DNA of 24,366 bases, taken from the IMG/VR virus record IMGVR_UViG_3300014208_000125, positions 1-24,366 of that record. One strand, 5' to 3'. The position numbers and the translations under genes are program-made. The DNA is from a virus. Lineage: Duplodnaviria; Caudoviricetes. Positions 6,705 through 7,875 of the stretch are shown here, in pieces. Position 1 is the first letter of the stretch. Each line of letters starts with the position of its first letter. The notes beneath the pieces are model-generated. The model made no database searches and was not told the origin of the DNA. It was given only the letters and a program-made list of their open reading frames with translations.

Positions 6705-6741
6705 AAAACAAACGCCACCCGTGGAAGTGGGTGGCGTTTTT
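6705..6741 (-). terminator. intrinsic terminator in the 5' leader of the replication operon (potentially bidirectional)
   Basis: AAACGCCACCC / GGGTGGCGTTT 11-bp stem, 8-nt loop, T-rich tails on both strands. Confidence 0.75.
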
Positions 6742-7182: not shown

Positions 7183-7253
7183 GAAGATTTAGTTTAGTGG
7201 TAGGACAATAGTCTCCAAAACTATTGGCAGAGGTTCGATTCCTCTAATCTTAG
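7183..7253 (+). tRNA. trnW: tRNA-Trp (CCA)
   Basis: Full cloverleaf: D stem GTTT/GGAC, anticodon arm ATAGT-CTCCAAA-ACTAT, T arm AGAGG-TTCGATT-CCTCT, G73; G1:A72 mismatch; CCA not encoded. Confidence 0.92.
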
Positions 7254-7256
7254 CAA

Positions 7257-7320
7257 TACGAAGCCTCGCTAGCTCGTAATATCCACAGGGATAGGGTAAG
7301 TCGCAAGACGCTCGTAGCGT
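7257..7320 (+). ncRNA. candidate small structured RNA
   Basis: Three hairpins including GTC-GCAA-GAC (GNRA loop); repeated GCTCGTA; GC-rich island. Confidence 0.4.
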
Positions 7321-7321
7321 A

Positions 7322-7513
7322 ATGAAACAAAATCAAGAACATAAAATACAATTCGGTGGGTACACAAAACGAAGTTATAAAGAAATTCGTAAAGTTATTC
7401 AGCGAATAGTAAAAAAAGAAATTGAAGAATCAATGGCGGGAGGGGGGTTAAGTAATCCCGATGGTCTCATAAACCGTCTAACCTTGAGCATTACAAGGTC
7501 TCCGCTACAATGA
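7322..7513 (+). CDS. hypothetical protein; 3' half overlaps the tRNA-like element
   Basis: 63-aa ORF with ATGA overlap to the next gene; may be partly spurious. Confidence 0.4.
   Translation: MKQNQEHKIQFGGYTKRSYKEIRKVIQRIVKKEIEESMAGGGLSNPDGLINRLTLSITRSPLQ
7435..7507 (+). tRNA. non-canonical tRNA-like RNA with CAU anticodon (Met/fMet-derived)
   Basis: Four stems at tRNA spacing; anticodon loop CTCATAA; D- and T-loops lack the conserved GG and TTC. Confidence 0.7.
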
Positions 7514-7875
7514 AAATAAAAACAGAGAAAGATTTTATAAAATGGATAAATGATTTAATTATATTATATAAACCTATTTTAGGTTTAGAATTACAAAGAA
7601 TAAAAGTAACCAAAGACAAGGAAACTAAATATCTTTCAATAAAATTCACATATCCTTATTTAGACCCAACAATAAATTTCTCTAACGAAGCATTTGAAGA
7701 CTGGAAAGAAGGTAAATTAGAAGAAGATAGTATACTACACGAATTATGTCACTGTTTAACCGATCCTTTATATTCAAAAGCTTTTGAAAGATTTACTTCT
7801 CATAACGAAATTGAAGATGAAAGAGAAAGACTAACTGACAAAATAGCAGTCATTGTTAGAAATTTATTAAAATGA
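7510..7875 (+). CDS. HExxH zinc metallopeptidase-like protein
   Basis: ILHELCHC motif with downstream Glu residues (EIEDERE). Confidence 0.75.
   Translation: MKIKTEKDFIKWINDLIILYKPILGLELQRIKVTKDKETKYLSIKFTYPYLDPTINFSNEAFEDWKEGKLEEDSILHELCHCLTDPLYSKAFERFTSHNEIEDERERLTDKIAVIVRNLLK

Follow-up and report, generated by a model that had tools for sequence, protein, structure and literature searches.

A phage tRNA(CAU) gene of initiator type with a bulged acceptor stem: fold, family and possible role

Genes and features of the tRNA(CAU) locus

The window, that is, the whole 24,366-nucleotide stretch of viral DNA that was analysed, has leftward replication genes and a rightward arm with terminase and major-head genes. 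An initiator-type tRNA gene with a CAU anticodon lies where the rightward arm begins, the tRNA-Trp gene being 180 bases upstream of it; its parts and neighbors are given in Table 1.

Table 1. Parts of the tRNA(CAU) gene and adjoining features (window coordinates)
Feature	Coordinates	Strand	Basis or remark
tRNA(CAU) gene of initiator type and bulged-acceptor class (positions 1-73)	7435..7507	+	fold, shuffles, covariance model
Acceptor 5' strand, paired with 7499-7506: G1 (wobble with U72), G2:C71, C3:G70, G4:C69	7435..7441	+	sequence and model alignment
G8, G9 and D arm (stem strands 7444-7447 / 7456-7459): G11:C24, U14 for A14, A18 G19 for G18 G19, G26	7442..7460	+	
Anticodon arm (7-base loop 7466-7472, CAU at 7468-7470): G29:C41 and G30:C40 kept, U31:A39 for the third G-C pair	7461..7477	+	
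T arm (stem strands 7482-7486 / 7494-7498), loop A54 G55 C56 A57 U58 U59 A60	7482..7498	+	loop type recurs in other phage tRNAs
Acceptor 3' strand, 8 bases, single bulged U at 7501 (between 67 and 68); discriminator A73 = 7507	7499..7507	+	
CAA trailer, CCA not encoded; final base = A of next start codon (ATG at 7510)	7508..7510	+	
tRNA-Trp(CCA), ends CAA, G1/A72 mismatch; only other tRNA in the window	7183..7256	+	ARAGORN, Rfam, parser
63-codon ORF running through the tRNA	7322..7513	+	either doubtful as a gene or a short gene read through
121-aa protein, conserved HExxH motif (HELCH), 80 homologues	7510..7875	+	not linked to the tRNA elsewhere

The cloverleaf at 7435-7507 is genuine. All of the stems that an earlier note on this DNA had placed at tRNA spacing are present; the variable loop has 3-4 bases, and three of the pairs are G-U. 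The D stem is predicted to be extendable to 6 bp, leaving a 4-base loop, and the anticodon stem is likewise predicted to reach 6 bp. The minimum-energy fold is the cloverleaf, at -26.8 kcal/mol (z -2.6), with 4 of 200 shuffles folding as well. The energy minimum bulges the 5' acceptor strand; the register that bulges the 3' strand is only 1.3 kcal/mol costlier and is the one backed by relatives. An 8-bp, tRNA-Sec-like acceptor was also considered and was dropped because U8-bearing relatives fix the 5' strand at seven bases.

The only two sites that a strict cloverleaf parser picks out in the window are the tRNA-Trp and the tRNA(CAU), and 300 dinucleotide shuffles of the window yielded no CAU cloverleaf and three of any anticodon. 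The expectation that standard annotation would pass over the gene is borne out: ARAGORN misses it at default, calling it tRNA-Met when the threshold is relaxed to 95%, and Rfam (RF00005 included) has nothing at the locus at E<=10. Four DNA sequencing runs contain no variant letters, the element itself being covered by one run only and by one identical contig; none of the listed runs matching the window is an RNA sequencing run.

Both overlaps of the tRNA with reading frames look incidental. The gene is literally embedded in an ORF, as had been pointed out, but the only homologue of that ORF is itself, and it has no Pfam or PHROG family. The overlap of the CAA trailer with the ATG of the HExxH gene was also correctly seen, and such a tRNA occurs in none of 18 viral loci with HExxH homologues, 14 of which were also checked with the covariance model described below.

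A Shine-Dalgarno motif was found in none of the 33 window genes checked, and the best-matching sequencing runs are groundwater and landfill metagenomes; together these suggest a host of CPR or Bacteroidota type. A promoter scan of the window gave five sites against 4.0 expected. The tRNA-Trp has, besides its 1/72 mismatch, an A-U-rich acceptor stem, which is unusual for an elongator. On the minus strand at 6710-6739, just upstream of the start of a leftward replication gene, an 11-bp G-C-rich hairpin is followed by a T run; a terminator is unexpected at such a place. Directly after the tRNA-Trp, a 19-base motif (7261-7279) is shared with two viral contigs (L336:601-619 and L337:601-619), one of which also has an HExxH gene downstream of it. 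No common fold is evident among the three loci, and the motif was rejected as a tRNA-linked processing element, there being no tRNA within 600 bases of it in the two other loci.

The bulged-acceptor class in phages

The distinctive trait of the gene is its acceptor bulge, which the earlier note mentioned only in passing. The bulged class is defined here by a CAU anticodon, an initiator acceptor end, one unpaired base, at 66a-68a, in a 3' acceptor strand of 8 bases, pairing in every stem and a phage context. The window gene has all of these, its phage context being given by the terminase and major-head genes, and is one of a class of initiator-type tRNA(CAU), widespread among phages, in which the acceptor bulge is on the 3' strand.

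A first pattern, combining both acceptor strands with the anticodon loop, retrieved phage tRNAs ending in CCA, mostly amid other tRNA genes and all with eight bases from the T stem to the discriminator. With the acceptor patterns, six of ten viral matches are bulged tRNAs, one is plain and three are chance; 8 of 20 metagenome matches are tRNAs, among them the record of the window itself (L050), and in cell genomes the figure is one of seven, lying within a 20-tRNA array. The exact T loop combined with the anticodon gave 11 matches in viral contigs, all 11 not tRNAs, and an AGC T loop combined with the bulge gave seven, of which six are chance and one is an initiator-type tRNA that has no bulge and a T loop of 8 bases. 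A wide pattern fixing the 8-base spacing had at least 120 matches in IMG/VR, from which, after setting aside 16 unparsed and 13 duplicates, 91 distinct bulged tRNAs were obtained. The control pattern, with normal spacing, likewise had at least 120 matches, 33 of them unparsed, and gave 87 distinct plain genes, a set that includes host-like genes. The bulge is common in phage initiator-type tRNAs: bulged-spacing stretches in IMG/VR number roughly 530 and plain ones about 7800, both rough extrapolations (the latter from 1 of 64 parts).

For 86 of the 91 bulged genes among the matches listed, omitting a single base lets pairs 2-7 all form. In the bulged genes the extra base lies between 66 and 69, most often as U (53) or A (28). 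The patterns or parser fix the anticodon loop, C56-R57-A58, C69-G70-C71, A73, CCA and G2-C3, and the conservation of these positions is therefore not evidence. When 66 of the 91 genes are aligned, 94% of cells are paired and there are 338 two-sided changes, distributed over 18 of 21 pairs; the covariation exceeds that of all 500 shuffles and of all slid controls. The view that the shape is under selection is thus supported, and the random stem decay in homologues that would have spoken against it is not seen. ARAGORN overlooks 22 of the 91 bulged genes as compared with 2 of the 87 plain ones (among the matches listed).

When the covariance model is built from the 66 other genes, the window gene being left out, 7435-7510 is the top hit in the window (47.3 bits, E about 1e-8), and all 21 pairs of the aligned window gene are standard, with the bulge column filled. 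Ordinary tRNAs with other anticodons reach up to about 55 bits on the same model, so class membership of the window gene is read from its anatomy and not from its score. At 47 bits, below several ordinary other-anticodon tRNAs, the window copy is among the most divergent members; its base 58 is U, in contrast to the A58 (a pattern-fixed position) of the scanned members, and it differs from them also in that CCA is not encoded. Sequence patterns found no close relative of it in viral contigs, and the argument for selection on this copy is therefore taken from its intact stems and paired swaps.

Among the tRNAs examined, the bulge is restricted to phage CAU tRNAs. Of 322 distinct tRNAs from the loci of the bulged genes that have another anticodon and encode CCA, 321 have seven bases in the 3' strand, and the remaining one can be read as having an additional C ahead of CCA, so that the bulge is present in at most 1 of 322. 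A bulged pattern requiring a TTCRA loop had six matches in 802 cell genomes (two samples of 401, all non-CPR): three have no tRNA stems in the matched string, and the others are a gene in a 20-tRNA array (L060), a gene standing alone on a contig of 1.6 kb and a 3'-half remnant. Full bulged genes thus occur in 2 of 802 cell genomes, both of doubtful chromosomal origin; the plain pattern is present in 37 of 41 control genomes, from one of the two phyla sampled. Two of 28 plasmid matches were checked and neither is clearly bulged. Cultured phages that have the bulge include Aeromonas phage TS3, Acinetobacter phage CRR8, Vibrio phage phi-ST2 and Vibrio phage nt-1, a phage of V. natriegens in which the bulged tRNA is unannotated; in named records, 5 of 15 parsed CAU genes were flagged as bulged, one of them (L348) doubtfully. 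At L335 (G789:C116) an initiator tRNA is represented by its 3' half alone, with one additional C, as expected of an integration-site remnant.

Core swaps, initiator determinants and the closest known systems

Besides the extra U, the window tRNA departs from the canonical initiator at G8, U14, A18, A54, G55 and U58. It had been claimed that U8, the D-loop GG and the T-loop TTCRA are replaced; they are, but G19 and C56 are kept, and the seemingly lost elbow is a set of co-varying swaps (A18/G55, G8/U14, A54/U58) that recur in other phage tRNAs. Over the 178 bulged and plain genes among the matches listed, D-loop GG accompanies U55 in 154 and AG accompanies G55 in 21, with three other combinations; U14 tracks the loss of U8, being found in 7 of 34 genes without U8 and in 2 of 144 with it (again among the matches listed). 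All seven G8/U14 genes are bulged, with D stems of 4-6 bp as in the window gene. T loops with A54, U58, U59 and A60 have nine other matches in the fetched loci, eight of them tRNA-like by eye; they include annotated tRNA-Phe genes of cultured phages, and the L112 loop is identical to that of the window. The reversed 54:58 arrangement may be a phage-wide motif.

Loops of the A54/U58/U59/A60 kind are spread across several anticodons (L341, L187, L085, L107, L112, L124, L312). The T5-like Escherichia phage IrisVonRoten, a cultured E. coli phage, has an unannotated initiator-type tRNA(CAU) (L342:151-226) with no bulge, G8, D-loop AG and a T loop starting GGC, a rebuilt elbow akin to that of the window gene.

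The initiator-like character proposed from the letters holds up, since the formyltransferase determinants G2:C71, C3:G70, G4:C69, A73 and R11:Y24 are all present, as are G29:C41 and G30:C40. The absence of a Watson-Crick 1:72 pair is provided by the G1-U72 wobble, which is weaker than a full mismatch; natural wobble variants at 1:72 are noted for initiators in the accessible part of one account (PMC6265465). R11:Y24, which lies outside the pattern-fixed positions, is found in 72 of the 91 bulged genes among the matches listed. The run of three G-C pairs at 29-31:39-41 was said not to be intact, which is correct for its third member, two of the three pairs being retained. Among the matches listed, where these pairs are not pattern-fixed, 87 of 91 bulged genes have G30:C40, 33 have G29:C41 and 24 have G31:C39, the full set of three surviving in 6 of 91 bulged genes and in 7 of 87 plain genes; loss of the triplet is ordinary for phage initiator-type tRNAs. 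The retention of G30:C40 in 87 of 91 listed genes agrees with the E. coli finding that G30 is the one essential base of the three pairs, as given in the part available of PMC5389676, where 16S A1339/G1338 are described as reading pairs 29:41 and 30:40. Both the elbow and the lost G-C pairs, which the earlier note had stressed, are real, yet they are common in phage CAU tRNAs.

Phage initiator tRNAs are already known from T5, the initiator tRNA of which is formylated. The T5 gene (AY543070, annotated "initiator tRNA fMet") shares with the window gene phage encoding, CAU, G2:C71, C3:G70, G4:C69, an unpaired or weak 1:72, G30:C40 as the only sure one of the three pairs, and a D stem that can reach 6 bp. 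The T5 acceptor is of 7 bp with no bulge, and T5 has U8, D-loop GG, T-loop TTCGA, U73 and an encoded CCA, where the window gene has the bulge, G8/U14, A18/G55, A54/U58 and A73. With bacterial tRNA-fMet, as far as described in the available portions of PMC9976931 and PMC5389676, the anticodon loop, 2:71, 3:70, 4:69, 73, R11:Y24, G29:C41 and G30:C40 are shared. The window gene differs in its U:A third pair, its G-U at 1:72 and its extra acceptor base, and U8, A14, G18, U54, U55 and A58 are all replaced.

The geometry of tRNA-Sec comprises a 6-bp D stem with a 4-base loop, a 6-bp anticodon stem and no U8. These features, the two stems as predicted, recur in the window gene. Among the non-canonical cloverleaves described in the accessible part of PMC7609411, namely tRNA-Sec, SelC* tRNA-Cys and allo-tRNAs, SelC* tRNA-Cys has a bulged base in its acceptor/T branch, at 51a in the T stem, whereas the window bulge is at 67a. 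The window gene has no long variable arm and no UCA, and its acceptor is of 7 bp, not 8 or 9. In the text of that review the terms phage, initiator and fMet are absent. The nuclease-evading phage tRNAs of PMC10264068 are likewise phage copies of a host tRNA altered at toxin-read sites; their substitutions are in the anticodon loop, the acceptor going without mention in the part available, while the hallmark of the window gene is an insertion in an initiator acceptor stem. No earlier account of the bulged class was found in the literature searched, which largely excluded older and subscription papers and supplementary tables; the class is absent from the accessible parts of two tRNA-structure reviews (PMC7609411, PMC10424219) and of a jumbo-phage review (PMC7824862).

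Possible roles of the bulged initiator-type tRNA

It has long been asked why phages carry tRNAs. Host toxins are known to attack the initiator tRNA, and VapC requires a G-C pair next to the anticodon loop. We give about an even chance to the reading that the window gene encodes a functional initiator tRNA whose altered shape lets it evade toxins directed at the host initiator. The tRNA(CAU) would be transcribed with the tRNA-Trp and late genes, excised by host processing enzymes and given its CCA by the host. By the identity rules, in which methionine charging depends on CAU and formylation on a weak 1:72, 2:71, 3:70, 4:69, A73 and R11:Y24 (PMC9976931, in part), MetRS would charge it and the formyltransferase would accept it through its weak 1:72, G2:C71, C3:G70, A73 and R11:Y24. 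Entry to the ribosomal P site would proceed through the kept G29:C41 and G30:C40, and the L shape would be held by G19:C56 together with the swapped partners 18/55, 8/14 and 54/58.

The least certain steps concern the toxins themselves. According to the accessible part of PMC7595197, AtaT requires G4G5G6:C67C68C69 and contacts the C67-C69 backbone. The bulge sits within this contacted region and might interrupt the run needed by AtaT-type acetyltransferases. VapC toxins cut within the anticodon stem-loop (PMC7180214, in part), and the altered 31:39 pair would adjoin a VapC-type cut site; initiation might then go on when the host initiator is destroyed. Among the three roles suggested earlier, a nuclease- or toxin-resistant initiator fits best. 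The other tRNA of the window is tRNA-Trp, also an AtaT substrate class (PMC7595197, in part), which fits the toxin reading weakly and could be chance.

Some published observations are set against escape from toxins. According to van den Berg et al. (PMC10264068, in the part available), tRNA-fMet is generally not among the tRNAs encoded by phages of a host that has VapC, and neither Met tRNA of phage Sf14 is classed as fMet in the accessible part of its description (PMC12482277). The under-calling of bulged tRNAs by annotation, which affects phage initiator tRNAs as counted above, bears on published statements that phages avoid tRNA-fMet.

The frequent Watson-Crick pair at 1:72, found in 57 of the 91 bulged genes among the matches listed, also counts against the toxin reading and points instead to effects on elongation or peptidyl-tRNA hydrolase. 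It favors an explanation that we consider unlikely, though far from negligible, namely that the gene encodes a working Met tRNA the bulge of which tunes sorting between initiation and elongation: the bulge would either replace the 1:72 mismatch as a guard, standing in against EF-Tu and peptidyl-tRNA hydrolase, or allow the tRNA to serve start and internal AUG. The pair is present in only 19 of 87 plain genes, a difference that persists after redundancy thinning (27/46 vs 18/65, p 0.002; both comparisons among the matches listed), and in E. coli pairing at 1:72 makes initiators open to the hydrolase and able to act in both steps (PMC6265465, in part). Significance is lost with stronger thinning (11/23 vs 8/31, p 0.15, among the matches listed), there are host-like genes in the plain comparison set, a second CAU tRNA is close by in 12 of 61 longer bulged loci, and the window copy itself has a wobble at 1:72.

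It is improbable that the class is functional while the window copy is decaying under relaxed selection. This copy is of the lowest-scoring kind of member, with three G-U pairs and no encoded CCA, it overlaps an ORF and a start codon, and its single identical contig offers no variant sequence for testing selection. Against decay, all 21 of its model pairs are standard and each loop change is matched by a partner change that recurs in phage tRNAs, as in the D arms of the seven bulged G8/U14 genes and in the A54-type T loops described above.

The suggestion that the RNA is a decoy, binding initiator-targeting toxins with no role in translation, draws on an initiator-like acceptor end and anticodon loop set on a body that departs from the tRNA consensus. 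It is a poor fit and quite improbable, because the changed features are those that toxins are reported to read, and the ribosome and formyltransferase sites are kept; in addition, at least one further tRNA gene is present in 52 of the 61 longer bulged loci. The third suggestion, a processing signal in the shape of a tRNA that would release an HExxH mRNA with almost no leader, takes its appeal from the trailer that overlaps the ATG and from the lack of Shine-Dalgarno motifs in the 33 window genes. It goes unsupported and is very improbable, given the 18 HExxH loci without such a tRNA and the fact that the G8/U14 and other relatives inspected adjoin unrelated genes or other tRNAs; freeing of the HExxH mRNA may be a side effect at the window locus. 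A lysidine-type tRNA-Ile2 reading AUA would agree with CAU, A73 and the 3.3% share of AUA among codons of the 33 window genes, but is scarcely credible, since acceptor G4:C69 and G5:C68 follow the initiator pattern and not the TilS determinants C4:G69/C5:G68. Identity as tRNA-Sec (UCA anticodon, 8- or 9-bp acceptor, long variable arm) was rejected on the CAU anticodon, the 7-base 5' acceptor strand and the variable loop of 3-4 bases, and identity as tRNA-Pyl (anticodon CUA) on the CAU anticodon.

The reading as a toxin-escaping initiator can be carried further, to a claim that is possible but doubtful: that phages across many hosts evolved an initiator class whose acceptor insertion blinds toxins that read the acceptor helix, with the rebuilt core of the window gene (G8/U14, A18/G55, A54/U58) showing "invariant" bases to be dispensable for initiation. 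If true, there would be a hidden arms race over the start tRNA. A one-base insertion in phage initiator-type tRNAs, nearly absent elsewhere in what was searched, offers a clean one-base test of counter-defense.

Bulged and plain forms also occur near one another. Two adjacent initiator-like CAU tRNAs (L102, at 801 and 948) comprise one bulged gene and one plain gene whose T loop is of the A54 type and which has a C1/C72 mismatch, and bulged-spacing and plain forms lie on the same contig at L068 and L202. On a 127-kb metagenome contig, an ordinary initiator-type tRNA (L043:1498-1572) has its extra base apparently on the 5' acceptor strand.
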